A stretch of 64,000 nt of DNA from Candidatus Omnitrophota bacterium (lineage in GTDB: Bacteria > Omnitrophota > Gorgyraeia > Gygaellales > Profunditerraquicolaceae): contig JBAZQO010000001.1 in assembly GCA_041645145.1 (NCBI GenBank), forward strand, positions 2,327-66,326, in the 5' to 3' direction. The notes beneath the pieces are model-generated. The model was not told the DNA's origin, did no database searches, and was given only the letters and a program-made list of their open reading frames with translations. A program made the position numbers and the translations under genes. Position 1 is the first letter of the stretch; each line of letters opens with the position of its first letter. Shown here in pieces: positions 1-49,218 of the stretch.

Positions 1-1078
1 AAATGCACCTTTATACCTGACCTCTTTGTATATTCGATCATCTTTTTAGCATTAGCCAGGTTCATATCCTTTTTGCAGAGTTTTAAAACCTCGTCATTCG
101 CTGATTCAATCCCATATTTAACCGCGTATAAACCGGCACCGGCCATGGAGCGCAATAATTCTTCATCCATAAGGTCAACCCTTGCCATCGCTGCCCAGGG
201 AACTTTTATCTTTCTCTTCTTTATTTCTTCGCAAATGCCTAAAACATGGGTTTTGTCAATATTAAATGTATCGTCATCAAAATATACGGCTTTAAAATTG
301 AATTTCTCAATGAGCCAAGCCATCTCTTCAACGACATTTGCCGGATTTCTTTTCCTGTATTTATGCTCCCCATATATTACCTGCGGCCAAAGACAAAATG
401 TGCATTGGAAGGGACAACCGCGGCTTGACCACATTTGAACATTAGGGACAGGCAAGCCGGAAAAACCGTCATTATATCTGTAAATATCCGGAGCCTCCCT
501 TTGCGGATAAGGTAGGTCATCCAGGTTGCCTATTGCCGGCCTTGGTTTATTAACCACGATATTTTTATTATTTCTGTAGGCCAGGCCTAAAACGGATTTT
601 AGGTCTCTGGAGTTCTCCAACTCCTCTACTAAGCTTAATAAAGTATATTCGTACTCCCCCATCAAAATGTACTCTATATAATCATATTTACTCAAAATAT
701 CTTTTGCGTAGGTCGTGGCATGCGGGCCGCATAGAACTATTTGGGAATTTGGCCTTTTCTGCCTTATTCTATAAGCAAGCCTCATATCGTTGTAAAAAGA
801 AGGGGTTGAGATTTCTATAACTATGAGACCGGGCTTAGCCGCGTCAATTTCATCCATAACTCTTTGTTCATCCAGACCCCTGGCTATGGCATCAATTAAT
901 TTTACATCTTTATTCTTACTTTTTAAAAGAGAGGCGGCGTAGGCGAGAAAAAAGGGGAAGGGAATGTATTTAATATAATTGTTTTCTTCGGCTTCAGATG
1001 TAAAAGGCCAGCGCGAACCGGCTCTTACTCCCCAGCGATTATTTTTGCGCCAGGGAAGATTTAACAGTATTATGCGCA
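1..1078 (-). CDS. B12-binding (class B) radical SAM protein, partial (C-terminus beyond window start)
   Basis: Translating the minus strand from ATG near 1078 gives MRIILLNLPWRKNNRWGVRAGSRW..., typical of an N-terminal cobalamin-binding domain. Further on is SSRGCPFQCTFC, a CxxxCxxC radical SAM cluster motif. The frame stays open to position 1. The plus-strand track ORFs 73-438 and 246-428 are shadow ORFs inside this gene. Confidence 0.6.
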
Positions 1079-1516
1079 TTATTTCTTAAGATCCAGGTGC
1101 CTTTCAATTTGCTCAAAGAAAACCCTGATCTGTTGAATATTCTGATTCATATCTCTCGAATCACAATTCATCTGATCAAAATTATCTTTTATGGCTCCGA
1201 GCTTCTGAGCTATGGACTGAAGATTTTGAATAAGAGCTTCATCCTGGGCCTCCCCTGATTCTTTAGCCTGCCTGAATGAATTCTGGATATCCGCTTTTAT
1301 ATCAAATGTCATCTGCCCGATATTAGCAAACATTTTTATTAAAGCTGCCAAGAGCAAGCTGCCCATTAAAATCAAAAAACCATAAATAAATGCATTAATA
1401 TCCTTGAATTTGAATATCATCCATAAACTTCCGGCAGCAACACCGCAAATTGCGATGAAATAAGAAAAAAACAGCAAGATTATCGTAATCGGCATCTTGT
1501 TGGCAATCTTTATCAT
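1079..1516 (-). CDS. hypothetical small membrane protein with C-terminal coiled coil
   Basis: 145 aa. Two hydrophobic helices (ITIILLFFSYFIAICGVAAGSLW; FIYGFLILMGSLLLAALI) are followed by a charged, Q-rich helical tail. It is tightly packed between rSAM and GT2 genes on the same strand. Confidence 0.35.
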   Translation of the reverse strand: MIKIANKMPITIILLFFSYFIAICGVAAGSLWMIFKFKDINAFIYGFLILMGSLLLAALIKMFANIGQMTFDIKADIQNSFRQAKESGEAQDEALIQNLQSIAQKLGAIKDNFDQMNCDSRDMNQNIQQIRVFFEQIERHLDLKK

Positions 1517-1526
1517 CTAGTCCTCC

Positions 1527-2840
1527 TTAAGTTACAGTCATTGCCTGATCGGTTTCCCTGGCTGAGTTTTCGATTAATTTGCTTATACCGGAGAAGCGGC
1601 TTGCCAGGCTTTCTATACAAGATTTAAAATTGAGCAATAAAACCTCCAAGAACCCGCTATTGAGATTAACCTGCTGTTTTTTGATTAGCCCGCTCCAATC
1701 CTGGTGCAGTTGGGAGAGATTAAAGAATCTGTCCAATAGCCGGTCATCCCGTATTTTATAAACGGAGAAAAGTAAATGCCTGTGCAACGTTTTATTAAAC
1801 TCCCTATCACTGAATTTCATCCTCATAAAAATAGATAGGATCAGCCCCAAAGCCAAAAAATTCTGCGGAAAGGTATCTTCCTTTTGAATCAGGCTGGAAA
1901 GGTTTCTTTTTGAGCAATCAAAATGATAAAAAAAGGTTAAGTCCAGCAAAGAAAGCCAAAACGAGACCTTGGAATGCATAGCTATATTAAACTGACCCTG
2001 GCTACCGGGAAAATTAAAATAATCAAAATCCCTTAAAGAATGATGCAGGGCTATCAAAAAATCCAAATAAATTAATTTATATCTTTCATTATTCAGGTCT
2101 TCTTCTAAAAAACGGTTAGCCAATCCAATATTATCCTTGATCTTGAAAGCAAATCTTTCCGGATTTTTATAAAACCCTTCTTCCACATAAAAAGCAAAAT
2201 GCCATCTCCAGAAATTATTCAACAGTGAGAATAAATCATCTTCCCTTAAATGCCCTACGGCTGCTTGCGGCTCATAAACTAAATTATATCCGGTTTTCCT
2301 AAGACGCCTGGAAATATCCACATCTTCAAAGTTATTTCTATAGTTATCGTCGTAAAATCCTGCTGAGATCAGCGCCGCTTTGCGGAATAAAGTATTCGAA
2401 CCGAACAAAAAAGGAGGGTTGGTTTTCCGGCGCTCTCCCCAATGTTGCTGCATATGGACAGAGCGCCAAATGTCAAAGATACTAGAGGCCCCGGTTTCCA
2501 CAACTCTTCCCCCTGCTCCCGCCACATTTGACAGATTAATTCTTCCAACCAAATACTTAAGCCAATCTTTATCCGGCTTGCAATCGCTGTCTAAGGAAGC
2601 GATAAATTCGGCATCGGTATTTTTAATAGCGGTATTTCTTGCCGCTGCTAACCCCATGTTTTTAGCATGCTTAATGATCTTTACCGGATATTTCCCGGCA
2701 ATTGCAGCAGTCATATCGGTTGAGCCGTCATCAATAACCAGTATCTCATCCGCGGGCATACTCTGGTGCAACGCCCCCTCCAAACAAGCCCCCAGAGTCT
2801 TTTCTGAATTGAAGCAAGGAATACAGAGGGAGATTTTCAT
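1527..2840 (-). CDS. glycosyltransferase family 2 with long C-terminal extension
   Basis: N-terminus MKISLCIPCFNSEKTLGACLEGALHQS...ILVIDDGSTDMT is a GT2 (GT-A fold) signature including the DDG motif. Its ATG overlaps the stop of the upstream rSAM gene (2837-2840). Confidence 0.7.
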   Translation of the reverse strand: MKISLCIPCFNSEKTLGACLEGALHQSMPADEILVIDDGSTDMTAAIAGKYPVKIIKHAKNMGLAAARNTAIKNTDAEFIASLDSDCKPDKDWLKYLVGRINLSNVAGAGGRVVETGASSIFDIWRSVHMQQHWGERRKTNPPFLFGSNTLFRKAALISAGFYDDNYRNNFEDVDISRRLRKTGYNLVYEPQAAVGHLREDDLFSLLNNFWRWHFAFYVEEGFYKNPERFAFKIKDNIGLANRFLEEDLNNERYKLIYLDFLIALHHSLRDFDYFNFPGSQGQFNIAMHSKVSFWLSLLDLTFFYHFDCSKRNLSSLIQKEDTFPQNFLALGLILSIFMRMKFSDREFNKTLHRHLLFSVYKIRDDRLLDRFFNLSQLHQDWSGLIKKQQVNLNSGFLEVLLLNFKSCIESLASRFSGISKLIENSARETDQAMTVT

Positions 2841-4069
2841 AGCGAATGGATCTCTTCCCTTAATTTTCTTTTTAGCCGGCTGATCTCCGAAAGGATGATC
2901 TCTTTGTCTTCCCCGCCGCTTTCCCTTATGCGCCGGAATTTGTTAAAAATACCGGGTAGCCTCCTTTTGAGGAGGTTCGTTACCGAACCCTTGTAAGAAG
3001 AATAGAACCTGTACCTTAATTTCATTTTTATTACCTGGCTCTTTAAAAACTGCAAGGCCTTATTAGTCAGCTTTCGGTAACTGGCGATCCTTTTTACCTT
3101 TTTAGCCTTATCCAATATGTACGCTTTTGAGAATCGGCTGCCGAAAACTTCATCATAACAGCTCATCAGGCACCCGCTGCATCCGTTATTGATAATAGAA
3201 TTGATCAACTTCCTTCTTTTTTCAGACAACCATAATTCATACAGGCTTTCTTCCCTTATATTTCCAATCAGCTTATTATGCGAAGCTTCGATCCAACAAG
3301 GAAATATATCTCCGTTTGAATTAATGGGGCATGAATACCGAAGCGCGCCGCAATTATCCGGATGGAATTTCTTACCGGTTAAATATGCGGGTATTTTAAA
3401 TAAATAGTTTGCTGGATTAGTAGAAATTTTGCGTTCTTGAGAAATATCGATAAATCTGTGGATTATGTCCTCTATCTTCGGAATCTCCCGCTTATCTATT
3501 AAGAATTCACCCGCGCGTGCAGAATCCTTTAAAAAGATTGCATTAAAAGGCTGTAATCTTACGGTGGTAGCTCCGTACTCTCCAGCTATCTCTAAAACGT
3601 AAAGCAAGTCTTCATAATTATACCTTGATACAGTTGAAGCAACAGTAGTCTCTATTTTATATTTCCTGAGGTTGGCCAGGGCAGAGGCCGCTTTATCAAA
3701 ACTGCCGGGGCCCCTTAAGTAATCGTGCGTCCCCTTGGTTCCTTCTATAGAAATATTCACCACATTGGCCCCGGACGCGCTAAGCCTGGAGGCAACCTGC
3801 TCATCGATTAAACACCCGTTCGAAGTAACGCATGCGTTTAAATTATTCTTCTTTGCAAAGAAAATAAGTTCAAAAATATCCTCTCTTAATAGCGGCTCTC
3901 CTCCGCTAAAAACTACAGTCTGCGCTCCTAATCTAGAGGAGTCATTAATGACTTTTTTCCATTGATCAGTAGATAATTCCTCAATTTTTCCGCAAGGAAT
4001 ATCGCACATCCTGCATCGCAAATTACATCTATTGGTGATAGAAAATATGACTTCCTTTAGGTTAAGCAT
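2837..4069 (-). CDS. radical SAM / SPASM-domain protein (paralog 1)
   Basis: CNLRCRMC (CxxxCxxC) near the N-terminus; GGEPLLREDIFELI SAM-binding glycine-rich motif. The C-terminal Cys-rich region (CGALRYSCPINSNGDIFPC...GCSGCLMSC) is consistent with a SPASM or twitch auxiliary Fe-S domain. Confidence 0.75.
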   Translation of the reverse strand: MLNLKEVIFSITNRCNLRCRMCDIPCGKIEELSTDQWKKVINDSSRLGAQTVVFSGGEPLLREDIFELIFFAKKNNLNACVTSNGCLIDEQVASRLSASGANVVNISIEGTKGTHDYLRGPGSFDKAASALANLRKYKIETTVASTVSRYNYEDLLYVLEIAGEYGATTVRLQPFNAIFLKDSARAGEFLIDKREIPKIEDIIHRFIDISQERKISTNPANYLFKIPAYLTGKKFHPDNCGALRYSCPINSNGDIFPCWIEASHNKLIGNIREESLYELWLSEKRRKLINSIINNGCSGCLMSCYDEVFGSRFSKAYILDKAKKVKRIASYRKLTNKALQFLKSQVIKMKLRYRFYSSYKGSVTNLLKRRLPGIFNKFRRIRESGGEDKEIILSEISRLKRKLREEIHSL

Positions 4070-5205
4070 TCTTTCAGCAATTCTTCGTAATCTGTTAATT
4101 TGAATAATGCGGTAGATAATGATTCCTTTTTGCTTTTTCCATCAATATTATCTTTTTTCAGATCATAAATAAACGTATCAATAATGTTTGTCAATGAATC
4201 TGCCTTGGGATTGGCCCAGCAAGTTTGCAGGCAGGGTTTTTGACAATTCTTCATTGTTCTTCTGGCCTGATCAGCCTCCCTGGTTTTTAAACATTCCCCT
4301 AAACTCAAACCTTGGATATTTCCAAAGGCCGAGCCACAACTACGAACATTGCCGTCAGGGCCAACATTTACAAAAACAAACGGATTACATTTCCACTCTC
4401 TTTTGGTCAGTTCGCCCTTAAAATGCTTAACCCACATATACGGATCGTGAAGAAAAGCTACCAAACCATGATGTTTTTTATAATTAACTATTTTGTCAAT
4501 TTGCTGCTTTAATAACTCAATATCATTATCTTTAAGCCAAAAACGGGCTTTGGGCGAGGTATTCTGCATATCATCCTGATTAACAATAACCGGATGATAA
4601 ACTAAACACTCTGCGCCGGCTTCTTTAACAAGAAGTATGATATCAAAAAGTTCACCGACATTCTCCCTCATGATTGTAGCCCAAACTGATATTTGGGGGC
4701 CGGTCCCCAACTTACTCTTACTTTCGGCTAAATTATTAATAGCGGCTATGGCCTTATTAAAAGCCCCTTTTTGTCTTATGGCATCATGGGTCGCTTCTTC
4801 AGCTCCATCAAGTGAGATGGCGATATTCTTTAAACCGGATGATATAATCCTATCGGCTAAATCTTTAGTGATTAAAGCCCCGTTAGAAACAGCTTCTATT
4901 TTTAATCCTTTAGCGAATCCATATTCTACGATCTCAAATATATCGTTTCTTAAAAAAGCTTCTCCTCCGGTTATAACAACGGTCAAATCCCATCCCCAGG
5001 CAGCAATTTCATCAAATAGATTTTTCACTGCATCCTTATGCAATTCATAACCCTGCAAAATGTTGACTACCCCGCACATTTGGCAACGATAAGTACATTT
5101 ATGGCTAAGGCTTAAATAAATCCAAAGAGGCTTTGCCAAAGGCCTTTCCAATAACTCCGAGAAATAATACGCTAAGTCCTGCTCGAATCTTTTAATATAA
5201 CTCAT
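4057..5205 (-). CDS. radical SAM / SPASM-domain protein (paralog 2)
   Basis: CTYRCQMC; GGEAFLRNDIFEIV. C-terminal CNPFVFVNVGPDGNVRSCG...CQKPCLQTC. Overlaps its neighbour gene by 13 nt. Confidence 0.75.
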   Translation of the reverse strand: MSYIKRFEQDLAYYFSELLERPLAKPLWIYLSLSHKCTYRCQMCGVVNILQGYELHKDAVKNLFDEIAAWGWDLTVVITGGEAFLRNDIFEIVEYGFAKGLKIEAVSNGALITKDLADRIISSGLKNIAISLDGAEEATHDAIRQKGAFNKAIAAINNLAESKSKLGTGPQISVWATIMRENVGELFDIILLVKEAGAECLVYHPVIVNQDDMQNTSPKARFWLKDNDIELLKQQIDKIVNYKKHHGLVAFLHDPYMWVKHFKGELTKREWKCNPFVFVNVGPDGNVRSCGSAFGNIQGLSLGECLKTREADQARRTMKNCQKPCLQTCWANPKADSLTNIIDTFIYDLKKDNIDGKSKKESLSTALFKLTDYEELLKECLT

Positions 5206-5222
5206 AAGATAACTTTTTAAAA

Positions 5223-6512
5223 TTATGCCGCCAGTTTATAGTTTTTTAATACTTCTTTTTTAAGTATATTCAATTTATAAACCTCTAATCTTTTCTGATT
5301 AAAATTACCCAAGAAATTGGGCTTTACGCGCTTTAACAACTCATTGATACAATAATCTATCCTGGATATTATTCGTTCACGGGCATTAGCATTATCCAAG
5401 CATCCTTCTATTCCGGTAAGAAAATGTTTCACCTGCCCTGAAATATCCATGGGAAAATATACACAATCTTGAAGGCAATGAGCTTTGCATTTATTCACAG
5501 TATCTCTAATCTTTTGTGCTTGCAGCGAAAACCAAATCTGTCTTAAATTTTCTTTTTTAAAATCGCCATAGAGCCCCTTACAACTCCATAATTTACCATC
5601 GCACGTTATAACTATCCGCTTAATCCCCTCATAACATTTAAAACGCCTCCCAGGCTTTTTGCCCCTGAAATAACCAGGGATGGACTTCAATATGGCAGGG
5701 TCTGTGTATATGAGAATGTCCTTGGTTTCTTCTTTAATGTTGACTAGCTTACATATATTTTCCTCTAAAAGTGGCATCTCTTCCACCGATGGCCATAATG
5801 AATTTTTCTTACGTTCATACATGCTAACATTGCTCATCAAAACAGGCTGAAACACAACGGTATTGCATTTTTTGCTTTTGGCAAATTCAACGATCTTCAG
5901 CATATCGTTAATATTTTTATTCATGATGGTAAAATTTATGCCGATGGACGGACTGGTTACCTTCATTTTTTCTTTGTAATAATTCAATTTATCGATTGCA
6001 TCAACGGACTTAGCGAAAGAGCCTTCACCCCTTATCGCGTCATTTACTCCGGAAATACCGTCTAATGAAATAGTAACGTGGTTTAACCCCGAACCGATTA
6101 AACTTTGCGCCGCTTCATCATTGCATAATGCTCCGTTTGTAATAATATCCACCCAGGGAATACCGCTCTCCCTGGAAAATCTTATAAGCTCCGTAAGATC
6201 TCCGCGCAGCAGCGGCTCGCCTCCAGAGAAAATAAGATGTTTCACGCCTAAATCTTTTATTTGTAATATAATTTTCTTTATCTCGTCAGTATTCAACTCA
6301 TCTTCCTGCCTACCCGGAGATTTAGGTATATCGCACATAACACAGCGTAAACAACATCTATTGGTTAACGAGAAATAAACATGTTCAGGTGGCACCAGAG
6401 GATAAGAAACTATCCGGCTGGCATAGAATCCTATCATATCCTCGACTTTTATCAGTTCTCTTTCTAAGTACTTATCCATTACTGCCCTTGCCGGTAGATA
6501 TCCCAAATACAT
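5223..6512 (-). CDS. radical SAM / SPASM-domain protein (paralog 3)
   Basis: CCLRCVMC; GGEPLLRGDLTELI. C-terminal CYEGIKRIVITCDGKLWSC...CKAHCLQDC. The true start is probably an internal Met (M12 or M26), because the first 41 nt overlap the upstream gene. Confidence 0.75.
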   Translation of the reverse strand: MYLGYLPARAVMDKYLERELIKVEDMIGFYASRIVSYPLVPPEHVYFSLTNRCCLRCVMCDIPKSPGRQEDELNTDEIKKIILQIKDLGVKHLIFSGGEPLLRGDLTELIRFSRESGIPWVDIITNGALCNDEAAQSLIGSGLNHVTISLDGISGVNDAIRGEGSFAKSVDAIDKLNYYKEKMKVTSPSIGINFTIMNKNINDMLKIVEFAKSKKCNTVVFQPVLMSNVSMYERKKNSLWPSVEEMPLLEENICKLVNIKEETKDILIYTDPAILKSIPGYFRGKKPGRRFKCYEGIKRIVITCDGKLWSCKGLYGDFKKENLRQIWFSLQAQKIRDTVNKCKAHCLQDCVYFPMDISGQVKHFLTGIEGCLDNANARERIISRIDYCINELLKRVKPNFLGNFNQKRLEVYKLNILKKEVLKNYKLAA

Positions 6513-7527
6513 TCCTTAAGCTGGAAGATGATTCCCTGGAGTAACAGGATTGTAGACATAACTTTTCGCATTTTTTTGAATGCCTCCTCAATTCATGGGC
6601 CTCTTTTGATCTCCAGGCCCCTTTTAACGACATCATGTTCAAATTTCCGCATATCCCGTGGCAGGTATAAACAAGCGGTTCGTTCTTAGAAAAACATATG
6701 AATACAGTCTTAAGCCCTCCGAAACAAACCCAATCCGGTTTCTTAAGTGTGCCCTGATAATATTTAATTAATAATTCCGGGCGTGGTTCTTTTAACACAA
6801 CAATATGTTTCCATGCGGTTTTTTCTATTTTTTCAATTTGATCTCTTAATAACGGTATCTTCTCTGCGGCCACCCAGTTTTGCGGAATCTTTCTTTCCAC
6901 GAAATTGGCATTATCGCTGATCAGCGGCTGAAAGTTAATCACATCGACGTTTAGGTCATCGGCTAATTGCGCGATATCATGAAGCTGGGAAACATTTTCA
7001 TCCATAACCGTGACAGCGATACCCAATGAGAAATTCCTGCCTGCGGCCTTCTTCTTGCCAAGCAATTTAATGCCTTCAACGGTTTTAGCGAAAGTATGCT
7101 TTCCTCTGTAATAATCATTCGTATTTTCCAGGCCATCGAGCGAGAAATGGATATGGTCTAAGTTTGATCCAGCTATCCGCTCTGACATATCAGCGTCTAT
7201 AAGCACGCCGTTAGTAGTAATAATATTTCTCAATCCCTTGGCATGAGAATAATCGCATATACTAAACAGGTCTTTCCTTAAAAAAGGCTCCCCCCCTGTT
7301 AAAAGCAGCTCTTTTACCCCATAAGAAGCGGTTTCATCAACTACCCTGTATATCTGTTCGGTAGACAATTCTTCATCCGGCGGCAACAAATCAACTATAC
7401 TGCACATGCGGCACCTTAAGTTACACCTGTAACTAAGGGAGATTTGTACCACCTCCGGATGGATTAAAGGATAATTCATCTTCCGGGATAACCAATAAAA
7501 CAGGTTATTCATCATTTCTCTCCGCAA
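6472..7527 (-). CDS. radical SAM / SPASM-domain protein (paralog 4)
   Basis: CNLRCRMC; GGEPFLRKDLFSIC. C-terminal CFGGLKTVFICF...CHGICG...CEKLCLQSC. The N-terminus (FYWLSRKMNYPLIHPEVVQISLSYRC) closely parallels paralog 5. Confidence 0.75.
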   Translation of the reverse strand: MRREMMNNLFYWLSRKMNYPLIHPEVVQISLSYRCNLRCRMCSIVDLLPPDEELSTEQIYRVVDETASYGVKELLLTGGEPFLRKDLFSICDYSHAKGLRNIITTNGVLIDADMSERIAGSNLDHIHFSLDGLENTNDYYRGKHTFAKTVEGIKLLGKKKAAGRNFSLGIAVTVMDENVSQLHDIAQLADDLNVDVINFQPLISDNANFVERKIPQNWVAAEKIPLLRDQIEKIEKTAWKHIVVLKEPRPELLIKYYQGTLKKPDWVCFGGLKTVFICFSKNEPLVYTCHGICGNLNMMSLKGAWRSKEAHELRRHSKKCEKLCLQSCYSRESSSSLRNVFGISTGKGSNG

Positions 7528-7540
7528 AAACTACCCCTAA

Positions 7541-9517
7541 CTATTTCGTAGCCCAAAGAGTAATGGCCGGGCCATGTTCATGCTTCTCTTTCCCGATTAT
7601 CTCAATTGAATTAAAGCCCGCATCTCTGATTGCTGCAAGCAAATCTTCTTCAAATAACCAAAACACCCTTTTCTCCAAACCACACACAATATCATTGATA
7701 TTCTCATCAAAATATTTTCCGCGGTAAATGCGATTATTCCACCTGGTTCCTTCAGCCGGAGCGATAGGATAACTATCATTGGCGTAATGCGACCAGACAA
7801 AAAGGCTGTTGCAGAGCTGGCCAATTCGATAAAGCAGCGCAACTGGGTTATTTAGATGATATAGAACTCCTGATGCCAGGCATAAATCAAAATGACCGGA
7901 AAAAGAGCTTAACACTTCATTCGCGTCACCAAATAAAAATTCGCATTTATCTAATTTGAACGCATTCTTAACGATCAGCGCTTTCAGAAAGTTTTCTTTT
8001 CTGCCTTCGATAGAGATAACCTTTTTAGCTCCGTTCCCCTGCAGTAGAGATGAATGCATCCCTTCCAAACAACCCATATCCAGAATAGTTAACCCTTTCA
8101 GGTTTATTCTTTTTCTTATCTCATTGATCTTTGATTCAAAAGGAACGCCTGGTTTAGGCTGTCCCGAAACAGAAATCTCTTCAAACGAAAAATTACCCAC
8201 CCAATTTTGAAAAATCCCAAACCCATATAATTGGGATATTGTTAACGACCCCCTAAAAGAGTTGAGTATATTCTCTAATTTCTTTAACGTATTTACAATA
8301 TCGCTATCCGGCTCTTCAGTCTTTGAATTAAGGACCCCTCTCATTGATTGCAAAAAAAAGTATTCTTCTTTGCGAATGGTAATTTGGGCGTCCCGAGGCA
8401 AGTTTCTTATTTCTATCTCTAATTGTTCATGAATTAAACTAATGTCGTCCGATTGTGAGCGTTCTGAACAAAATTGGGTGCAGCTTTTTTTACAATTCTT
8501 GATCATTTCCCTGATTTTACCGGTATCCTCTGCATACCATAATTGTTTCAGGCTGTCTTTTTTGATATTCCCGAATGACTGTAAGCATACAAAACTCATA
8601 TCTCCCTGCGGATTTACAAAAATCCTGTTGAATCCCGCAAAACAGGTATTCTCAAATCCCTCTCCCCGGAAATGTTTGATGGTTTTCTCCGGCATGATAT
8701 CTATATGCATGAAACCTGAAAATTGTCTCTTTTTGGCAATCAAAATATCGAAAATTTGCTGCAGCCTGGGGATATCCTTTTCTTCAATCCAGAGTTCATT
8801 ATTTTCTAAAGGTGCGGGTAAATCCCCGTTATTCACCAAGGGCTGGAAGGCTATATAACAACAACCTATTTTTCTTGCCAAATCAGCCAAGGCAGGCAGT
8901 TCCTCCATATTCTTCTTCATGATCACGCTTACCATTGCAATATCCAAAACCCTATCTTCGCTATTACGGCCGCGGCCATATTTTTTTTTATAGTAATTAA
9001 GATACTCAATGGAACGCATCGCTTTCTCAAATATTCCTTCACCCCGGAAAAAATTATGCGTTTTGGGGCTTGCCCCGTCGATAGAAAAACTTATATTCCT
9101 TAATCTTGACCTTACTATTTTTTCAGCAGTCTCTTCGTTGATAAAACCACCATTAGTATTAATTGTAGTGACGATCCCAGGGCGAGCAGCGTAATCGATT
9201 AACTCAAATATGTCTTTTCGCAGGAGCGCTTCGCCTCCGGTAAAATAAATCGTCTTTATACCCATAGATAGGGCTTCATCAATAAACCTTTTAATGTCTT
9301 CTGCACCTGCTTCTTCCTGAAACCGCTGCTTCCATACATTACACATCTTACACTGAAGCTGACAACGGGACGTAACCATAAGCTGCAGCATATCAGGCTC
9401 AACCATTGCTTTATTTAATAAGCGGGAAAAATTAAACAAATAATCCCTTTTGTGCTTATTAAAAATTTCTTCCATCCTATCCACGACCATGATACTCCCC
9501 CATTCTGGAAATAACAA
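7541..9517 (-). CDS. fusion protein: N-terminal radical SAM/SPASM domain + C-terminal class I SAM-dependent methyltransferase domain
   Basis: N-terminal half: CQLQCKMC, GGEALLRKDIFELI, CFAGFNRIFVNPQGDMSFVC...CKKSCTQFC. C-terminal ~200 aa: LTILDMGCLEGMHSSLL resembles the Rossmann-fold methyltransferase motif I (hhDhGCGxG-like), followed by hydrophobic and acidic motifs. Confidence 0.65.
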   Translation of the reverse strand: MLFPEWGSIMVVDRMEEIFNKHKRDYLFNFSRLLNKAMVEPDMLQLMVTSRCQLQCKMCNVWKQRFQEEAGAEDIKRFIDEALSMGIKTIYFTGGEALLRKDIFELIDYAARPGIVTTINTNGGFINEETAEKIVRSRLRNISFSIDGASPKTHNFFRGEGIFEKAMRSIEYLNYYKKKYGRGRNSEDRVLDIAMVSVIMKKNMEELPALADLARKIGCCYIAFQPLVNNGDLPAPLENNELWIEEKDIPRLQQIFDILIAKKRQFSGFMHIDIMPEKTIKHFRGEGFENTCFAGFNRIFVNPQGDMSFVCLQSFGNIKKDSLKQLWYAEDTGKIREMIKNCKKSCTQFCSERSQSDDISLIHEQLEIEIRNLPRDAQITIRKEEYFFLQSMRGVLNSKTEEPDSDIVNTLKKLENILNSFRGSLTISQLYGFGIFQNWVGNFSFEEISVSGQPKPGVPFESKINEIRKRINLKGLTILDMGCLEGMHSSLLQGNGAKKVISIEGRKENFLKALIVKNAFKLDKCEFLFGDANEVLSSFSGHFDLCLASGVLYHLNNPVALLYRIGQLCNSLFVWSHYANDSYPIAPAEGTRWNNRIYRGKYFDENINDIVCGLEKRVFWLFEEDLLAAIRDAGFNSIEIIGKEKHEHGPAITLWATK

Positions 9518-9547
9518 TATTTCACATTAGCTTATAGGAAAAGAATA

Positions 9548-10912
9548 TTAAGAAATACCGCCCTTATAAACTCCTAAGATTTTAGCCAACCCGAATAACA
9601 TTCCTCTTCTTATTTCCCGGATCCTTGGGCTGTTCTTCCCCCTGATATACCATTCTGAGTTATTATTATAGCGGATATTCAAAGAACCCTGCTCTCTCCA
9701 TAACCGCGATTTATGCGGGATATAACAGCTGCTGACACTTACGAACTCATCAATATATTCCCGGTTATTAAATAAAAAGATCATAGTCTCTATAACGTCG
9801 CTCCATCTTTCCGCAGGATAGCCTACCATCCATAATGTATTAACCCTGATTCCGGAATCGTGAGTTCTCCGTAAAGCTTGAGAAATATGTTTTTTTAGCG
9901 GCTTGCCCATATGCGCCAGGACTCTGGCGGCCCCGCTTTCAATGCCATATGTAAAATAAATCCCGCCTGCTTTCTTTATTTTGCACAGAAATTCCTGCGA
10001 CATTTCTATCCGCGCCCGGGCCATACCTCCCCATTCAAAATTATTCTTACTGGCGATTATTTTATCCGTTAATTGCCCCAATTTCTCTAAATCTCCGTTA
10101 ATCATTAAATCGTTGCACTTAAAACGCCTGCGGCCAAAGAGCTCGCCATGCTTTATCATTTCTTCAAGGATGTTATCGGCGCTCCTCATGCGATACCTTC
10201 CCCACATAGGCGCGTCCGTACAGAATGCGCAGCTATAATTACATCCCCGGCTGAAAATAATCGGGATTTCTAATTTATTAGTATAGCGCTCGAGATCAAA
10301 TAGTTTTAGTGCAGGAGACAGGATGCTATCAACATCCAAAGGATTCGCATCCCAACCATTATCTTTGAAACCGGTGCCCGTATTAACCAATGTGCCTTCT
10401 AAGGCTAAATCCATTATGGATTCGCCACGCTCAATTATTTTCGCTATTCTACTAATGATCTTCTCGCCTTCCCCCCGGACATAAACATCAACATTGTTAT
10501 TCAACTCTCCGGATTCTATAATCTCCGTGCACAAGGGACCGCCAAATACAATACAGGCATCCTTCGCTTTCTTCTTTAATACATCCGCCAATAAATTAGC
10601 CAATATTCTGGAATGGCTGTTAACGCTTAAACCTATAATTTTTGGATCACACTCCAAAACGGTTTCTGTCCATTTTTCTACCAAATCCGAAACATTAAAA
10701 TTTCTATTTATTTTTTCTAAAGAAGCCCAGTGATCGGAATTTTCCCAGTCCCACAAAAATTGTTTATCTTTACTCTCTACGTATAGTTGAGAATTGAAAC
10801 AAAAAACAGAAACTTTATATCCGTCATTCATTAACTGGCTGGCTATATATGCTATGCCCAAAGGTGGCATATCAACTCCGTAGAGAGGAGGAAAGACCAA
10901 GGCTACATTCAT
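9548..10912 (-). CDS. B12-binding (class B) radical SAM protein
   Basis: The N-terminus MNVALVFPPLYGVDMPPLGIAYIASQL...GYKVSVF is typical of a cobalamin-binding domain. Further on is IIFSRGCNYSCAFCTD (CxxxCxxC). Its stop overlaps the next gene's start (ATGA). Confidence 0.75.
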   Translation of the reverse strand: MNVALVFPPLYGVDMPPLGIAYIASQLMNDGYKVSVFCFNSQLYVESKDKQFLWDWENSDHWASLEKINRNFNVSDLVEKWTETVLECDPKIIGLSVNSHSRILANLLADVLKKKAKDACIVFGGPLCTEIIESGELNNNVDVYVRGEGEKIISRIAKIIERGESIMDLALEGTLVNTGTGFKDNGWDANPLDVDSILSPALKLFDLERYTNKLEIPIIFSRGCNYSCAFCTDAPMWGRYRMRSADNILEEMIKHGELFGRRRFKCNDLMINGDLEKLGQLTDKIIASKNNFEWGGMARARIEMSQEFLCKIKKAGGIYFTYGIESGAARVLAHMGKPLKKHISQALRRTHDSGIRVNTLWMVGYPAERWSDVIETMIFLFNNREYIDEFVSVSSCYIPHKSRLWREQGSLNIRYNNNSEWYIRGKNSPRIREIRRGMLFGLAKILGVYKGGIS

Positions 10913-11970
10913 TTTTGCTTTCTAAAGTTATTTTTTAAGATATCCCTTAAGCTGGCTGATTCCTGCCGGGCGTGACAATCCTGAAGGCAGTAATTACGGC
11001 ATTTTTTGATTTTAACCCTTCTTTTCTTAGCCTTAAGAGAAAACCAATTATTTTTTACCGAAGGCTCTCTTCTTATATTCCCGATTTCTTCGCCGCACAT
11101 TTGGATTGAGCCGCCGGGGACTACTACAAACCTGCGATAACCTGCAAAACAAACCCAATCACCCTCACACAGATCCCTCCTGAAATATTTCTTTATTAAA
11201 TAAAAACTGGGATAGTTCAGGCCGTATCCTTTCTGTTGAAGAAGATCGATTTTATCTATCATCTCATCCAGCTTTTTTAAACGGTCACCAGTAATCCACA
11301 AATTTCCTTCACTGCTCCCAGAGTCCTGCTTATACAACTTAACATTGTTCAGGACAACAGAAGTTATATACAAGGCGTCAACCGACAAACCTTTGGCAAG
11401 ATGGAAATATTCCTCTAATTCATCAAGGTTATAATTAGATAGGGTCAATATCAATACCTTGATTAATTTCTTTTCCTCCGGGGAATTATTTAAATGCCTT
11501 ATTCCCTGCATTATTTTATCGTAAGCGCCGGGTTGGGCTCTAATTTTATCATGCGTTTTGCCTCTGGCGCCATCAAGGGATATCGTAATTACATCAAGCT
11601 TAGACTGAATTAACCTTCTTGCCACCTCTTCAGTTATCAGCGTGCCATTCGTGGTTAGAATAACGGTTAAGCCCAGCGATTTTGCATATTCTATAACATC
11701 AAAACATATCTCGCACAAAAGAGGCTCTCCTCCGCATAGATTGACTTCCTTAACCCCCCATTCGCGGCACTGATTCAGAATATCCTTAATTTCTTTAAGG
11801 GTTAATTCCTCGCTTATGTTTGCAGCCTTCCATACGCTACACATCTCGCATCTAAGATTGCATCTACTGGTAAGGGATATCTGCAGGGTATCGGGTGGAA
11901 CAAGAGGGAAATTAATCTTTCGCGACAGCCAAAATCCGAAATCCCTTTTTATTTTATCAATTTTATTCAT
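10909..11970 (-). CDS. radical SAM / SPASM-domain protein (paralog 5)
   Basis: CNLRCEMC; CGGEPLLCEICFDVI. C-terminal CFAGYRRFVVVPGGSIQMCGEEIGNI...CRNYCLQDC. Confidence 0.75.
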   Translation of the reverse strand: MNKIDKIKRDFGFWLSRKINFPLVPPDTLQISLTSRCNLRCEMCSVWKAANISEELTLKEIKDILNQCREWGVKEVNLCGGEPLLCEICFDVIEYAKSLGLTVILTTNGTLITEEVARRLIQSKLDVITISLDGARGKTHDKIRAQPGAYDKIMQGIRHLNNSPEEKKLIKVLILTLSNYNLDELEEYFHLAKGLSVDALYITSVVLNNVKLYKQDSGSSEGNLWITGDRLKKLDEMIDKIDLLQQKGYGLNYPSFYLIKKYFRRDLCEGDWVCFAGYRRFVVVPGGSIQMCGEEIGNIRREPSVKNNWFSLKAKKRRVKIKKCRNYCLQDCHARQESASLRDILKNNFRKQK

Positions 11971-11991
11971 AATCCAGCGGTAATGTTATTT

Positions 11992-13914
11992 TCAATCGCA
12001 AAAACAAGGCAAAAGACAGGGATTTTTGCACTCCCTGACCCTTTTTCTTGCCTGCACACTCTTTTCAGATTCGAAAATCTTTCTTAAGGAGTCTTTCCGG
12101 ATATTACCATAACTTTCAAAACAAGTAGCTACATCGCCGTTGTTAGCAACCAGAACCGTCTTAGCTGCATAAAGGCACTTTACATCGCCTTGGGATAAAT
12201 ACCCCCGGAAATATTTTTTTACAAGCCTGAGGTTATTCTCTGAATTACGCACAAGGAGATAATTATCTTTTTTAAATTCAAGCAATTTATCTATTACCGC
12301 ATCTAATACTGCCAGCCTCTCCTGAGGTATCCAGTATTTAGTTCCCCCCCTCCTCTCTTTCATTATTAGATTATTGGGAAGCAGGGGTTGAAACTGGATA
12401 GAATTAACATTGAGTGATTTTAAAAAAACAGCTAAGTCCAAAAGCTCTTCCAGATTCTCATTAAGAATTATAGAGATAGTGTTAAAATTTATACCTCGAC
12501 CCCTTTTCTTTAATCGGGAAAGTTTTTCCAGGGCAGCGGATGTCTTCTGGAAAGCTCCTTCGACCCCACGTATTTCATCATGAATTCCAGGGTTCAACGC
12601 GTCAAGTGAAATACTCAAAGAGAGGCTCCCCGAATTAAAATATGGCAGTAACTTATTAATAAAATATTCATTCAATATAATGCCATTAGTCAGCACGCCT
12701 ATATGGTAATTTTTTTCTTTTACAAAATCTAATATTTCAAAAATGTCCTCTCTTATAAAGGGTTCTCCGCCGGATAAAACAAATTCCCTGACTCCCCAGC
12801 CAATAGCTTCATTTATAAGATTTTTTATTTCATCCGAGGTGTACTCCCCGATTGGCTTATCTTTTCTTATTTCACAGATATTACATTTAAGATTACACCT
12901 GTGCGTAATATCCAAAATAATAACTTCCGGCTTGGGAGGATTGCTGACGGTGTTATTTTGGCCATTATTTAAGTCATTCTCCGGTATTTTTGCTGCTCTT
13001 ATATGCTCTACCGTATTACCGATTAAATAATTCACTTTATGCAACGCAAAATAAAGGAAAATTTGGAACTTTTCATATAAAGTAATGTGGGTAAGCGACC
13101 GGATTAAACGCCTGCCCAAAAGATAAGAAAAGCGCGGGATCTTGAAAAAATTTATGATTGACCCAAAAATAAAATAAGTGTTATTTTGAGTCTTTATTTC
13201 CTTTAATAGGGGGTGGTCTTTATGCACATGTTGCACCAAGTAATTCCCCCGGCCGTACATATACGCCTGTTTTAAAAATGAAATGATGTTTGTATGACAA
13301 TCGTGGAATATTTTTATATCTTGCTTATAGCTAAGCCTGCCGCCATTTTTAAAAATCCTCCAGAATAAATCTAGATCTTCACCTGCGGGAAAAGGGAACA
13401 GTTCATTGAAACCATTGACAAGATAATCTCGCTTAAAAGACACATTGCAAGTCGGGAAAAATATAGTTTCGGGCTTTCCCTTTATCTCGGTTGCTATTGC
13501 TCCGTCACTTAAAAATTGGCTAACCTTCGCCTTAATATTATGGCTGGCGACCTCAGTAGTACCCCCAATTGCTGCGATATGTTTCTCTAATCTATGCGCC
13601 TGAACCATCTGCCTGACCCAATCTTTATTCAAGATACAATCGCTATCCGTAAAACCGATTATTTCTGCAGATGCATATTTTATGCCTAAATTTCGCGCAA
13701 CAGCAGGGCCTTTGTGCTGTTGAATAAAATACCTCAAGTTAGGATTTATTTTAGAAAGCGCCTCAAGCATATCTTTAGTTCCATCATTAGAACCATCATC
13801 TATTACAATTATCTCAAAGGCATCTTTTGGATAAATCTGCGCGAATAAGGAATCGAGGCATTGTCTGAGTTTGAGCTTTCGATTATAAGTAGGAACTACT
13901 ATAGTAAAATCCAT
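11992..13914 (-). CDS. fusion protein: N-terminal GT2 glycosyltransferase + C-terminal radical SAM/SPASM domain
   Basis: N-terminus MDFTIVVPTYNRKLKLRQCLDSLFAQ...IIVIDDGSNDGT (GT2). C-terminal half: ILDITHRCNLKCNICEIR (CxxxCxxC), GGEPFIREDIFEIL, CLYAAKTVLVANNGDVATCFESYGNI...CKNPCLLPCFCD. Confidence 0.7.
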   Translation of the reverse strand: MDFTIVVPTYNRKLKLRQCLDSLFAQIYPKDAFEIIVIDDGSNDGTKDMLEALSKINPNLRYFIQQHKGPAVARNLGIKYASAEIIGFTDSDCILNKDWVRQMVQAHRLEKHIAAIGGTTEVASHNIKAKVSQFLSDGAIATEIKGKPETIFFPTCNVSFKRDYLVNGFNELFPFPAGEDLDLFWRIFKNGGRLSYKQDIKIFHDCHTNIISFLKQAYMYGRGNYLVQHVHKDHPLLKEIKTQNNTYFIFGSIINFFKIPRFSYLLGRRLIRSLTHITLYEKFQIFLYFALHKVNYLIGNTVEHIRAAKIPENDLNNGQNNTVSNPPKPEVIILDITHRCNLKCNICEIRKDKPIGEYTSDEIKNLINEAIGWGVREFVLSGGEPFIREDIFEILDFVKEKNYHIGVLTNGIILNEYFINKLLPYFNSGSLSLSISLDALNPGIHDEIRGVEGAFQKTSAALEKLSRLKKRGRGINFNTISIILNENLEELLDLAVFLKSLNVNSIQFQPLLPNNLIMKERRGGTKYWIPQERLAVLDAVIDKLLEFKKDNYLLVRNSENNLRLVKKYFRGYLSQGDVKCLYAAKTVLVANNGDVATCFESYGNIRKDSLRKIFESEKSVQARKRVRECKNPCLLPCFCD

Positions 13915-16629: not shown

Positions 16630-16630
16630 A

Positions 16631-17422
16631 TTAAATACGTTTTAAGGCGCTGGATTCAAGACAAACCGACACCGACAGCCCGATAAATAAACTGAAAAAA
16701 GCCCAACCGATAACCCCCAAGAACGTCCCGACATCCGGTATCCTGCCGTAAAGAATTATCTCCCGGTAACAGATAATAAACGGAGACATCGGATTAAAAT
16801 TAAAAGCCCACCGGAATTCAGGCGGAATCATCTCTATAGAGTAAAAAACAGGGGTGACCCAAAACCAAAACATAAGCAGGATTCCAAGCAAATGTTCCAG
16901 GTCACGGAAAAGAATGTTAATTACGCTAAATAACAAACTAATCCCGCAGGTAAAAAAATAAGTCAACAAAAATATAACCGGCAACAAAGGGGTCAGGGGG
17001 ATAATCTTGGGATTGTGGAAAGAAAATACCGGATAGACAATGCACCAACTCATAAGAAAACTCATAAAATAAGACAAGACAGAACTCAAGGGCAGTATCT
17101 CTTTCGGTAAACTGAATTGATGGAGGACGCTTTTCTGGACTAAAAGAGAGGGAGTGGCTTCGGATAGAGCCCCGGAAAAAAACATCCACGGTAAAATACC
17201 CGAAAGCACAAACAAAGCGAAATCTTTTACTCCGGTTTTAAAAACAGCGGTAAATACAAAGGTTATTACCAGCATCATGAGCAAAGGGTTTATTATCACC
17301 CAGAAAAAACCTAAAACAGAACCGGCGTATTTAGCCTTAAATTGCTTTAATGACATGCTCCATAAAGAGCGCCGGTAAGAATATATTTTCTGAATTCTTT
17401 TTATAATTAATTTTACGGGCAT
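16631..17422 (-). CDS. wzm: ABC-2 type polysaccharide exporter permease (Wzm/KpsM/TagG family)
   Basis: 263 aa with six predicted TM helices. It lies immediately downstream of the ABC ATPase, 1 nt apart, which is the typical Wzm-Wzt pair. Confidence 0.75.
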   Translation of the reverse strand: MPVKLIIKRIQKIYSYRRSLWSMSLKQFKAKYAGSVLGFFWVIINPLLMMLVITFVFTAVFKTGVKDFALFVLSGILPWMFFSGALSEATPSLLVQKSVLHQFSLPKEILPLSSVLSYFMSFLMSWCIVYPVFSFHNPKIIPLTPLLPVIFLLTYFFTCGISLLFSVINILFRDLEHLLGILLMFWFWVTPVFYSIEMIPPEFRWAFNFNPMSPFIICYREIILYGRIPDVGTFLGVIGWAFFSLFIGLSVSVCLESSALKRI

Positions 17423-17430
17423 TCCGCTCC

Positions 17431-49150: not shown

Positions 49151-49218
49151 AAAGGGACGCTTAATTGGAGACCTTCTTATTGGCTGATAAACCTTTGGGA
49201 AGGTTAGCGTCCCTTTTA
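49151..49218 (-). terminator. long-range stem (12 bp) enclosing an inner hairpin, immediately 3' of the giant ORF stop
   Basis: aaaagggacgct ...45 nt... agcgtccctttt. The inner part has ccttc..gaagg pairing. On the minus strand it is followed by UUAUUUG. Confidence 0.45.

Follow-up and report, generated by a model that had tools for sequence, protein, structure and literature searches.

A radical SAM-rich operon for a probable exported glycan in Omnitrophota, with two class-B-type enzymes that appear to differ in role

The window, by which we mean the whole 64-kb stretch of DNA analysed, opens with 17 genes (g0–g16; positions 1–22177) that all lie on the minus strand with gaps of −41 to +30 nt and make up a single, tightly packed operon in an Omnitrophota bacterium. 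The phylum Omnitrophota is widespread and uncultivated, and its cells are very small and may depend on a host. The 22-kb operon, of at least 17 genes, encodes a WecA-like primer, a UDP-galactopyranose mutase (UGM) homolog, a Wzm/Wzt exporter and four glycosyltransferase domains, and includes nine radical SAM genes (Table 1). Its G+C content is 0.37–0.41 across 1–18 kb, against 0.42–0.47 across 18–52 kb. Three PF00535 (GT2) domains fall within the window and one further GT2 lies just past its edge; PF00953, PF00534/PF13439, PF00535, PF01061 and PF00005 make the Wzm/Wzt glycan pathway set complete in one cluster. An earlier note on this DNA had assigned its genes to a glycan operon, and the WecA/MraY-family primer, the GT4 and GT2 transferases, the ABC-2 exporter of Wzm/Wzt type and the UGM homolog bear this out: the operon very probably makes an exported glycan. 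The literature searches yielded no published description of such a cluster and no Omnitrophota glycan structure.

Table 1 Genes of the operon, numbered from the start of the window
Gene	Position	Strand	Product and features
g0	1..1079	minus	N-terminal 359 aa of 452-aa radical SAM protein, class-B architecture, HpnJ/AprD4-like; core gene
g1	1079..1516	minus	145 aa; hydrophobic N-terminal half, polar C-terminal half
g2	1527..2840	minus	GT2 glycosyltransferase; PF00535 113 bits; core
g3	2837..4069	minus	Radical SAM with SPASM-like C-terminal domain; PF04055 87.9, PF13186 35.7 bits; core
g4	4057..5205	minus	Radical SAM, paralog family of g3; PF04055 69.1 bits; core
g5	5223..6512	minus	Radical SAM/SPASM paralog; PF04055 89.1, PF13186 22.9 bits; variable block
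g6	6472..7527	minus	Radical SAM/SPASM-like paralog; PF04055 92.9, SPASM 20.2 bits (just below cutoff); variable block
g7	7541..9517	minus	Radical SAM/SPASM and class-I SAM methyltransferase fusion, 658 aa; variable block
g8	9548..10912	minus	454-aa radical SAM protein, class-B architecture; orphan clade; accessory gene, variable block
g9	10909..11970	minus	Radical SAM paralog; PF04055 93.9 bits; variable block
g10	11992..13914	minus	GT2 and radical SAM/SPASM fusion, 640 aa; core, cluster hallmark
g11	13915..16629	minus	Wzt-like ABC ATPase, 904 aa; ABC_tran 73 bits
g12	16631..17422	minus	Wzm-like ABC-2 permease; PF01061 43.3 bits
g13	17431..18741	minus	TPR-repeat protein, hydrophobic N-terminus
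g14	18738..20039	minus	FAD enzyme, homolog of eukaryote-type UDP-galactopyranose mutase
g15	20032..21015	minus	WecA/MraY-family polyprenyl-phosphate sugar-1-phosphate transferase (primer); PF00953 107.8 bits
g16	21008..22177	minus	GT4-family glycosyltransferase; PF00534 133.6, PF13439 66.3 bits; first assigned cluster gene

The gene order recurs in the Omnitrophota loci L004, L042 and L043, and an Elusimicrobiota locus, L045, holds an analogous cluster. The set of primer, glycosyltransferase, ABC-2 permease and ATPase is found again in L042, L043 and L046, as is the UGM homolog, and the Wzm/Wzt-type transporter always stands alongside a WecA-like primer. The core is conserved across Omnitrophota and the radical SAM block between the core genes is species-variable, with 7 to at least 11 radical SAM genes per cluster according to species. 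Among the assembly genes, g15 scores 86 bits against the WecA model TIGR02380, below its cutoff, and L043 has a GT4 gene at the position of g16. The product of g14 matches the PDB entries 4DSG (E 1.5e-43, residues 4–415) and 3UKA (E 2.9e-42), and its orthologs are 45–62% identical; an FAD protein of L045 shares its Pfam domains with g14, yet tblastn at E 1e-10 gave no match between the two. Orthologs of g2 (42–71% identity) occur in L004 and L043. For g1, which reaches no Pfam or NCBIfam family cutoff, the N-terminal half likely consists of membrane helices and the C-terminal half is possibly a coiled-coil; the protein is 65% identical in L004, and L043 has a different, 247-aa protein in its place. 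The TPR-repeat gene g13 is present in L042 and not in L043.

Only g0 and g8 carry a B12-binding domain in the 64-kb window, with the seven other radical SAM genes between and beside them. Of these seven, g3, g5, g7 and g10 score above the PF13186 cutoff, g6 scores narrowly below it, and g4 and g9 give no match. With respect to the seven-cysteine SPASM motif, four cysteines are invariant among the seven paralogs and six of the seven have a fifth (C274, C292, C324, C328 and C332 in the numbering of g9, which has the C-terminal cysteines common to the family), and the C-terminal domain of these proteins may be an abbreviated, twitch-like one. The product of g4 is 30–33% identical to those of g5, g6, g7 and g9 and 25% identical to that of g3; the best PDB match of g9 by sequence is BlsE (7VOB, E 1.8e-13). 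Orthologs of g3 and g4 are 45–74% and 55–66% identical, respectively, and those of g5 (47–49%) are restricted to L042 and L043, the matches in L004 being at paralog level (at most 32%). Two of the seven are fusions. In g7, PF04055 (residues 48–174) and PF13186 (292–347) are followed by methyltransferase families (463–636), and the L042 ortholog aligns to residues 16–370 only, without the methyltransferase domain. In g10, a GT2 domain (PF00535, residues 4–165) precedes PF04055 (336–497) and PF13186 (580–630), a fusion that ties radical chemistry to glycosyl transfer. Of the 120 protein clusters listed, nearly all have this fusion, aligned along almost the full query with no less than 49% identity, and all 13 of the listed matches that bear an organism name are from Omnitrophota.

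Both class-B candidates begin with a B12-binding domain followed by CxxxCxxC, as the earlier note had read from the two minus-strand ORFs. Searches with the B12-binding and radical SAM models that it proposed gave, for g0 and g8 respectively, 40.7 bits (E 2.5e-10) and 41.6 bits (E 1.2e-10) against PF02310 (gathering cutoff 32.1 bits), and 54.9 and 50.7 bits against PF04055 (cutoff 29.5 bits). The motif is CPFQCTFC at residue 222 of g0 and CNYSCAFC at residue 224 of g8, its cysteines are invariant in both family alignments, and these domain and motif matches lie well beyond chance expectation. The ORF at the edge, given as 1–1078, is real and runs past the window start, with its ATG at 1079 and 359 aa visible; its full-length, 452-aa product is P0121 (100% identical). 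An N-terminal pattern, hhh.PP...G..Y...L...G..V, had been ascribed to both proteins; g8 fits it (ALVFPP...PPLGIAYIASQLMNDGYKV) and g0 does so only loosely, with LLNLPW followed by an insert of ~25 residues kept within the g0 family (GVRAGSRWPF...YIPFPFF).

AlphaFold2 models of g0 (pLDDT 88.6) and g8 (pLDDT 95.0) predict a radical SAM barrel preceded by a Rossmann-type domain. Both models match TsrM, OxsB, QCMT, CysS, TokK and AprD4, and class-B architecture stands for both proteins by profile and by fold. AprD4 is the top or joint-top structural match of each, and the modelled fold does not tell cobalamin binders from AprD4-like proteins; AprD4 has a Rossmann-like domain yet binds no cobalamin (PMC12931638). 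In every solved class-B member the protein leaves the lower face of the cofactor without direct contact (PMC12931638), so a conserved axial ligand motif is not available as a marker. The matches to B12 models, the absence of which was to count against the class-B assignment, leave that assignment standing but are not diagnostic either, and "cobalamin-binding" is used for g0 and g8 as the label of a domain family, binding itself being putative. The two proteins are 25–29% identical and fall, as judged from their sequences, into unrelated clades, so a shared function is not required.

By profile, g0 is closest to HpnJ (TIGR03471; 286.3 bits, E 4.5e-85, residues 17–421), at half of the 577.6-bit cutoff, followed by BchE (198 bits); the AprD4 family model (NF033070) gives 116.1 bits, below its cutoff of 500. 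Methyltransferase profiles also score well (ApyD 177, Sden_1168 154, PhpK 145 bits). AprD4 is the best PDB match by sequence (E 7e-27) and the top Foldseek match (E 8e-25, TM 0.78 both ways, 24% identity). Orthologs of g0, 51–80% identical, are present in all four compared loci that cover this end of the cluster, and one or two GT2 genes directly follow the g0 ortholog in L003–L006 and L043. HpnI is a GT2-family enzyme, and the GT2 adjoining g0 gave no NCBIfam HpnI match at E ≤1e-8. HpnI makes N-acetylglucosaminyl-BHT, and HpnJ makes BHT cyclitol ether from glucosaminyl-bacteriohopanetetrol (PMC12324291). Like g0, HpnJ works beside a glycosyltransferase step, and it rearranges a sugar with no methylation; unlike the HpnJ system, the window has no hopanoid genes. 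AprD4 of the apramycin pathway (PDB 6FD2) is a radical SAM 1,2-diol dehydratase that acts on the aminoglycoside sugar paromamine (PMC5461906). It shares with g0 the Rossmann-like N-terminal domain and radical SAM barrel over a full-length fold match, and it works on the sugar ring of a glycoside. However, g0 sits in a Wzm/Wzt glycan operon and not in an aminoglycoside pathway, it has the conserved N-terminal insert, and its cluster contains neither a counterpart of AprD3, the reductase partner of AprD4, nor any short-chain dehydrogenase/reductase gene.

For g8, the best NCBIfam matches are ApyD, BchE, a RiPP C-methyltransferase subfamily, PhpK and QCMT, at 70–91 bits, far under the cutoffs; QCMT (9CCB, E 1.9e-8) is the best PDB match by sequence, and cobalamin-bound TsrM, OxsB and QCMT are the top Foldseek matches. 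ApyD is a Tyr C-beta methyltransferase (10.1101/2023.10.30.564719). Orthologs are found in L042 (60% identity) and L043 (50%); in L004 the position is held by two other B12-domain radical SAM proteins, and in L046 a g8-like protein is fused to an SGNH hydrolase and a g0-like protein to a radical SAM–SPASM paralog. Methylation by g8 is plausible because most of the families closest to it are C- or P-methyltransferases, and by this analogy methyltransferase activity would be the likeliest single guess, though one we hold with reservation. GenK, GenD1/GntE, MoeK5 and Fom3, compared by description, have the same class-B architecture and offer a precedent for methylating unactivated sugar carbons (PMC12931638). 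Unlike these enzymes of small-molecule antibiotic pathways, g8 belongs to an exported-polymer operon, and its best curated matches are peptide- or phosphinate-directed methylases at no more than 91 bits. No family score comes near its curated cutoff, and every function considered here is therefore an analogy at 15–30% identity.

On balance, we favor an exported-glycan operon with radical SAM tailoring in which g0 and g8 play different roles. Co-transcription is no proof of a common substrate, and we think it probable that the radical SAM enzymes act on the glycan of the operon or its sugar precursors. The nine enzymes would use radical chemistry to modify sugars, or the glycan as it grows, ahead of export. 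g0 is a conserved core enzyme, always beside the terminal GT2 gene or genes, in which the 5'-deoxyadenosyl radical is predicted to take a hydrogen from a sugar and set off a redox-neutral rearrangement; the predicted outcome is either ring contraction or loss of water from a 1,2-diol to give a deoxy-keto sugar, with no methyl transfer. g8 is an accessory enzyme of the species-variable block of proposed tailoring genes, from a class-B clade with no characterised member, its likeliest activity being cobalamin-dependent methylation of an unactivated glycan carbon. The 64-kb window showed no gene for an electron donor to these enzymes. Many radical SAM enzymes on one polymer have a precedent in the proteusin polytheonamide, which is tailored by radical SAM epimerases together with several C-methyltransferases of the B12 radical SAM type. 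Like the proteusin pathway, the operon combines SPASM-like and class-B enzymes on what is presumably one polymeric substrate; this is an analogy only, as the proteusin substrate is a ribosomal peptide and the partners here are glycan assembly and export genes.

The earlier note had gone from class B to methyltransferases and on to C-methylated sugars. As stated this step is not supported: the strongest relatives of g0 by profile, sequence and structure, HpnJ, BchE and AprD4, are non-methylating, AprD4 also being cobalamin-free (PMC12931638); by analogy with them g0 probably does not methylate, and the methyltransferase reading survives for g8 as a plausible guess from its nearest families. That both are cobalamin-dependent C-methyltransferases of the GenK/Fom3 type, each contributing C-methylated sugars to the glycan, is therefore unlikely, even though most characterised class-B enzymes are methyltransferases, several of them acting on sugars (PMC12931638), and methyltransferase profiles match both proteins as do the B12-binding model and the radical SAM motif; no profile attains its curated cutoff. 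We give more weight, while still doubting it, to the possibility that the Rossmann domain of g0, g8 or both is a cobalamin-free scaffold, as in AprD4 and ArsL, and that the proteins concerned are ordinary radical SAM enzymes descended from class B. Against this, both proteins pass the Pfam cutoff and each family keeps its N-terminal domain strongly conserved; a review counts BchE, another family close to g0, among the cobalamin-dependent radical SAM enzymes (PMC12931638). Neither a cobalamin riboswitch nor a gene for cobalamin uptake or synthesis was found in the 64-kb window, which is too small to show that a cobalamin supply is absent.

The substrate might also lie outside the glycan. The seven paralogs best match SPASM peptide maturases and NirJ/AhbD-type haem enzymes (~100–140 bits), the GT2 genes best match the mycofactocin transferase MftF, and radical SAM-rich neighbourhoods with proposed tetrapyrrole substrates are known from Elusimicrobia (10.1101/765248), all of which would suit a battery that matures a ribosomal peptide or a tetrapyrrole-like cofactor for export by the ABC transporter. 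Yet these family scores are all far under their cutoffs, no RiPP precursor peptide gene lies beside the maturases, and every intergenic gap is 30 nt or less, which leaves no space for one; g1, the only non-enzyme gene beside the maturases, encodes a predicted membrane protein that L043 does not conserve, and the cluster has neither a leader peptidase nor a nitrogenase-like gene. The ABC-2 transporter with its constant WecA-like primer, the recurrent UGM homolog and the GT2–radical SAM fusion likewise argue for a glycan, and we regard the peptide or cofactor reading as highly improbable. Equally remote, in our judgment, is modification of a lipid (a polyprenyl carrier, or a hopanoid-like or membrane-spanning lipid) instead of sugars, to give an exported glycolipid. 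HpnJ, the best family of g0, acts on a hopanoid-linked sugar (PMC12324291), but it rearranges the sugar part and not the lipid, and the ORFs of the window include no squalene-hopene cyclase, HpnH/I/K or other lipid synthesis gene. Mss homologs have been reported in some Omnitrophota MAGs (PMC11868695), and there are matches to a ladderane-lipid B12 radical SAM protein and the tetraether synthase Tes; these are weak, at 130 bits against a cutoff of 360 and 71 bits against a cutoff of 450, respectively.

With sugar tailoring as the preferred reading, we tentatively propose that radical editing diversifies the exported surface glycans of Omnitrophota and of one or more Elusimicrobiota lineages, with a species-specific battery set on a conserved core. 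The assembly and export core would make a simple polymer, probably containing galactofuranose, whose sugars 7 to at least 11 radical SAM enzymes would rewrite while lipid-linked in the cytoplasm. The battery would draw on several class-B clades, on a new clade with an abbreviated SPASM domain and on the GT2, methyltransferase and SGNH fusions, and its reactions might include epimerisation, deoxygenation, ring contraction, C-methylation or crosslinking. Variation of the surface glycan would then arise mainly from radical SAM gene content and not from glycosyltransferase or nucleotide-sugar genes.

Most known cases of radical SAM enzymes acting on sugars come from small-molecule antibiotic pathways (AprD4, GenK) and the hopanoid head group (HpnJ); BtrN and DesII are further such enzymes of antibiotic pathways. 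We know of no bacterial cell-surface polysaccharide cluster built on a radical SAM battery. If the enzymes do act on the glycan, Omnitrophota would have surface sugars beyond the reach of nucleotide-sugar pathways and a new route to surface-antigen diversity, and several new enzyme clades would be available for carbohydrate C–H functionalisation. For annotation, g0 and g8 caution that a B12-binding domain with a radical SAM domain does not equal "methyltransferase", nor even "binds cobalamin".

The closest counterparts of the assembly and export genes are the Klebsiella O1/O2 D-galactan I (rfb) and mycobacterial galactan (Wzm/Wzt, Glf) systems, which make ABC-transporter-dependent, galactofuranose-containing glycans. 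They share with the operon WecA-type priming, a UDP-galactopyranose mutase gene, cytoplasmic polymerisation by GT2 and GT4 enzymes and Wzm/Wzt export. Galactan-export models are among the best NCBIfam matches of both exporter subunits, well below cutoffs: g12 scores 53.6 bits against the galactan export permease Wzm/RfbD (cutoff 380 bits), and g11 matches teichoic-acid and galactan export ATPases. To our knowledge those galactan clusters contain no radical SAM genes, whereas the operon has nine, and in two of these the radical SAM part is joined to another domain of the glycan pathway. Its UGM homolog also differs in being long and eukaryote-like. The Wzt-like ATPase g11 is distinguished by three C-terminal copies (residues 238–451, 468–670 and 691–901) of an uncharacterised domain of ~210 aa, which has no match in Pfam or the PDB; a search with this domain returned 467 representative matches among 1.84 billion proteins.

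The two class-B-type radical SAM proteins, g0 and g8, are encoded in an operon of 17 genes that is read from position 22177 to position 1, with intergenic gaps of −41 to +30 nt. All notable ORFs in the window lie on the minus strand, and a promoter and terminator scan of 1–20 kb found terminator-like sites at chance level.

Genes of the operon in transcription order, followed by other features of the window
Order	Gene	Coordinates	Strand	Product
1	g16		−	GT4 glycosyltransferase
2	g15		−	WecA/MraY-family primer
3	g14	18738–20039	−	FAD enzyme
4	g13		−	TPR protein
5	g12		−	Wzm permease
6	g11	13915–16629	−	Wzt ATPase, 904 aa
7	g10		−	GT2::radical SAM/SPASM fusion
8	g9		−	Radical SAM
9	g8	9548–10912	−	Class-B-type radical SAM, 454 aa
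10	g7		−	Radical SAM/SPASM::class-I methyltransferase fusion
11–14	g6, g5, g4, g3		−	Radical SAM(/SPASM), four genes
15	g2		−	GT2
16	g1		−	Small membrane protein
17	g0	1–1079	−	Class-B-type radical SAM
	g3–g7, g9, g10	2837–13914	−	Seven non-B12 radical SAM paralogs
		49216–56853	−	2545-aa ORF
		59660–63415	−	GyrA, 1251 aa

An earlier note had read both proteins as cobalamin-binding enzymes on the basis of a B12-type N-terminus followed by CxxxCxxC. Pfam and a motif search bear out both features. PF02310 (B12-binding) and PF04055 (Radical_SAM) matched above their gathering cutoffs in g0 (40.7 and 54.9 bits) and in g8 (41.6 and 50.7 bits), and each protein has a single CxxxCxxC, CPFQCTFC in g0 and CNYSCAFC in g8. 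The N-terminal motif quoted in that note is a good fit to g8, but g0 has LLNLPW and then an insert of ~25 residues that is invariant in its family. The g0 ORF is likewise real, although its ATG lies one base further, at 1079, than the 1–1078 originally assigned; the ORF shares one base with the upstream gene's stop codon, and 359 codons fit in before the window edge. An identical database protein, P0121, supplied the missing C-terminus, giving a full length of 452 aa. The two proteins share 25–29% identity, chiefly within the radical SAM core. The class-B architecture is thus real in g0 and g8, which add two new proteins to a known superfamily; architecture alone is insufficient to establish cobalamin binding.

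Both proteins were placed among the class-B families by curated-profile scores, used as a proxy for phylogeny. The ranking for g0 was HpnJ (286 bits), BchE (198), ApyD (177), Sden_1168 (154), PhpK (145) and AprD4 (116). Membership of the HpnJ family, whose cutoff is 577.6 bits, was rejected on score and gene context, as was membership of the AprD4 family, where g0 also falls below the curated cutoff. When a full-length ortholog from the comparison locus L004, 80% identical to g0, was compared with PDB sequences, AprD4 (6FD2) was the best match (E 7e-27), with QCMT, TokK, CysS, OxsB and TsrM behind. A Foldseek search with the AlphaFold2 model of P0121 (pLDDT 88.6) also returned AprD4 as the best hit (E 8e-25; full-length alignment at 24% identity, with TM 0.78 either way). 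Bacteriohopanetetrol receives its cyclitol ether head group from HpnJ (PMC12324291), and AprD4, a radical SAM 1,2-diol dehydratase, works together with a reductase on paromamine (PMC5461906). Judged by these relatives, the known chemistry nearest to g0 is sugar rearrangement or dehydration, not methylation, and g0 itself, with over 120 relatives sharing ≥58% identity, is predicted with reasonable confidence to carry out a reaction of this kind and not to methylate.

No close curated family was found for g8, whose highest scores were to ApyD (91 bits), BchE (86), a RiPP C-methyltransferase subfamily (83), PhpK (81) and QCMT (70). The first of these, ApyD, methylates the C-beta of tyrosine in a cobalamin-dependent reaction (10.1101/2023.10.30.564719). 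We tentatively predict an accessory tailoring role for g8, methylation being the leading guess. The protein has ~40 relatives at ≥40% identity. A distant homolog from a Bdellovibrionales genome occurs on its own, so the association with the cluster is limited to the close g8 family and does not extend to every relative.

The seven non-B12 radical SAM proteins are mutually paralogous (25–35% identity over ~310–340 residues), and two of them are fusions, with a GT2 in one case and a class-I methyltransferase in the other. Their C-terminal cysteines comprise four that are invariant and one that is near-invariant (C-x17-C ... C-x3-C-x3-C), whereas canonical SPASM has seven. Curated SPASM families matched them weakly, at ~100–140 bits against cutoffs of 265–650. 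Two paralogs, g9 and g5, were searched against PDB sequences; BlsE was the best match for g9 and PqqE for g5 (with BlsE fourth), and SkfB, MoaA and viperin were also among the matches.

The core of the operon resembles the ABC-transporter-dependent galactan clusters that occur in Klebsiella and mycobacteria, the resemblance lying in g14. The FAD enzyme that g14 encodes shows clear homology to UDP-galactopyranose mutases of the eukaryote type (T. cruzi 4DSG, E 1.5e-43, near full length; A. fumigatus 3UKA, E 2.9e-42), a result that points to furanose sugars. Orthologs of g14 lie beside the radical SAM battery in three comparison loci (L042, L043 and L046); the FAD protein of L045 shares its Pfam family, yet gave no BLAST match to g14. 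In the Wzt protein g11, the ABC domain is followed by three tandem repeats of ~210 aa (residues 238–901; 27–29% identical pairwise) with no relative in Pfam or the PDB. Among 1.84 billion representative proteins searched, only 467 matched; these are 450–1400 aa long and carry 1–6 tandem copies that mostly start near residue 240. The repeats are an uncharacterised family of Wzt C-terminal domains and may be a glycan-binding module.

Three longer orthologous loci (L004, L042 and L043) keep the gene order of the window. The conserved core consists of the primer, mutase, Wzm, Wzt, GT2::radical SAM fusion, g4, g3, GT2, g0 and a terminal GT2. Almost all of the 120 protein clusters listed for the GT2 fusion match it at ≥49% identity over nearly the whole query, and all those with an organism name are from Omnitrophota. 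Between the fusion gene and g4 lies a variable block, represented in the window by g9, g8, g7, g6 and g5 and in L043 by g8 with genes resembling g6 and g5; in L042 the radical SAM genes number at least 11 overall. A g8 ortholog is missing from L004, where the block (2928–5851) instead encodes a different pair of B12-domain radical SAM proteins (500 and 479 aa; 29–30% identical to g8). In L046, two fusion proteins are encoded beside counterparts of the primer, mutase, Wzm and Wzt genes: one of 910 aa (5355–8087) joins a g0-like part (47% identity) to a SPASM paralog, and one of 772 aa (10001–12319) joins a g8-like part to an SGNH/GDSL hydrolase. The Elusimicrobiota locus L045 (567–12514) has seven radical SAM genes beside an ABC-2 exporter, the related FAD enzyme and a GT2. 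Directly downstream of the g0 ortholog in related Omnitrophota genomes come one or two GT2 genes and then two Ddl-like ATP-grasp genes (L004 12491–15666; also L003, L005 and L006), 88–94% identical between genomes, indicating that the glycan cluster continues for about one gene past the window edge. L004 additionally has a lysine-2,3-aminomutase-like radical SAM gene after the cluster. In the Omnitrophota MAGs L003, L005 and L006, only 270–440 nt of contig precede the g0 ortholog, and the radical SAM block may be a place where assemblies are prone to break, perhaps through paralog repeats or strain variation.

From the observed gene set, for which we infer the chemistry, a pathway can be proposed. 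The primer would place a sugar phosphate onto undecaprenyl phosphate, and the chain would be extended in the cytoplasm by the GT4 and GT2 enzymes from donors including a furanose made by the mutase homolog. The radical SAM enzymes would modify the sugars or the nascent chain, with g0 as a core enzyme linked to the last glycosyl transfer, before Wzm/Wzt exports a product that the three Wzt repeats, as candidates, might recognize in its finished form. Radical SAM enzymes are oxygen-sensitive and depend on cytoplasmic reductants, which fits tailoring before export. That the glycan is their substrate is probable, the best evidence being the radical SAM fusions to GT2, methyltransferase and SGNH domains and the constant association with the export core. 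Taken together, the cluster appears to be an ABC-transporter-dependent glycan operon around a variable radical SAM battery, a combination not found in the searchable literature. The radical-SAM-rich loci described in Elusimicrobia differ in context, adjoining nitrogenase paralogs.

Other readings were weighed against this one. The original proposal, that g0 and g8 are both C-methylases supplying C-methylated sugars, now seems unlikely: the class-B architecture holds for both, but the kinship of g0 with HpnJ and AprD4 weakens it. Service in a peptide or cofactor pathway is still less probable, since there is no precursor gene, the gaps are too short to contain one and the exporter belongs to the polysaccharide type; a RiPP reading was rejected on the same absence of a precursor ORF from the cluster. 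We consider a lipid target equally improbable, as the window holds no lipid pathway genes. Greater weight, roughly a third, goes to Rossmann domains that are cobalamin-free, as in AprD4, which a 2026 review describes as lacking bound cobalamin despite its Rossmann-related domain and its clustering with class-B enzymes (PMC12931638). Neither a cobalamin gene nor a cobalamin riboswitch was found within the window, where the sole matches of an RNA-family search were four tRNAs, but 64 kb is too small to settle cobalamin supply.

G+C content is 0.37–0.41 over the operon's tailoring and export genes (1–18000) versus 0.42–0.47 over the next 34 kb (18000–52000). Low G+C is frequent in polysaccharide loci. 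Housekeeping genes fill the remainder of the window (V-type ATPase, pyrimidine synthesis, GlmS and gyrase). An intein carrying a LAGLIDADG homing-endonuclease domain splits the GyrA gene. No Pfam domain matched the 2545-aa ORF at E ≤1e-5; Omnitrophota are reported to have very long proteins (10.64898/2026.06.07.730766).
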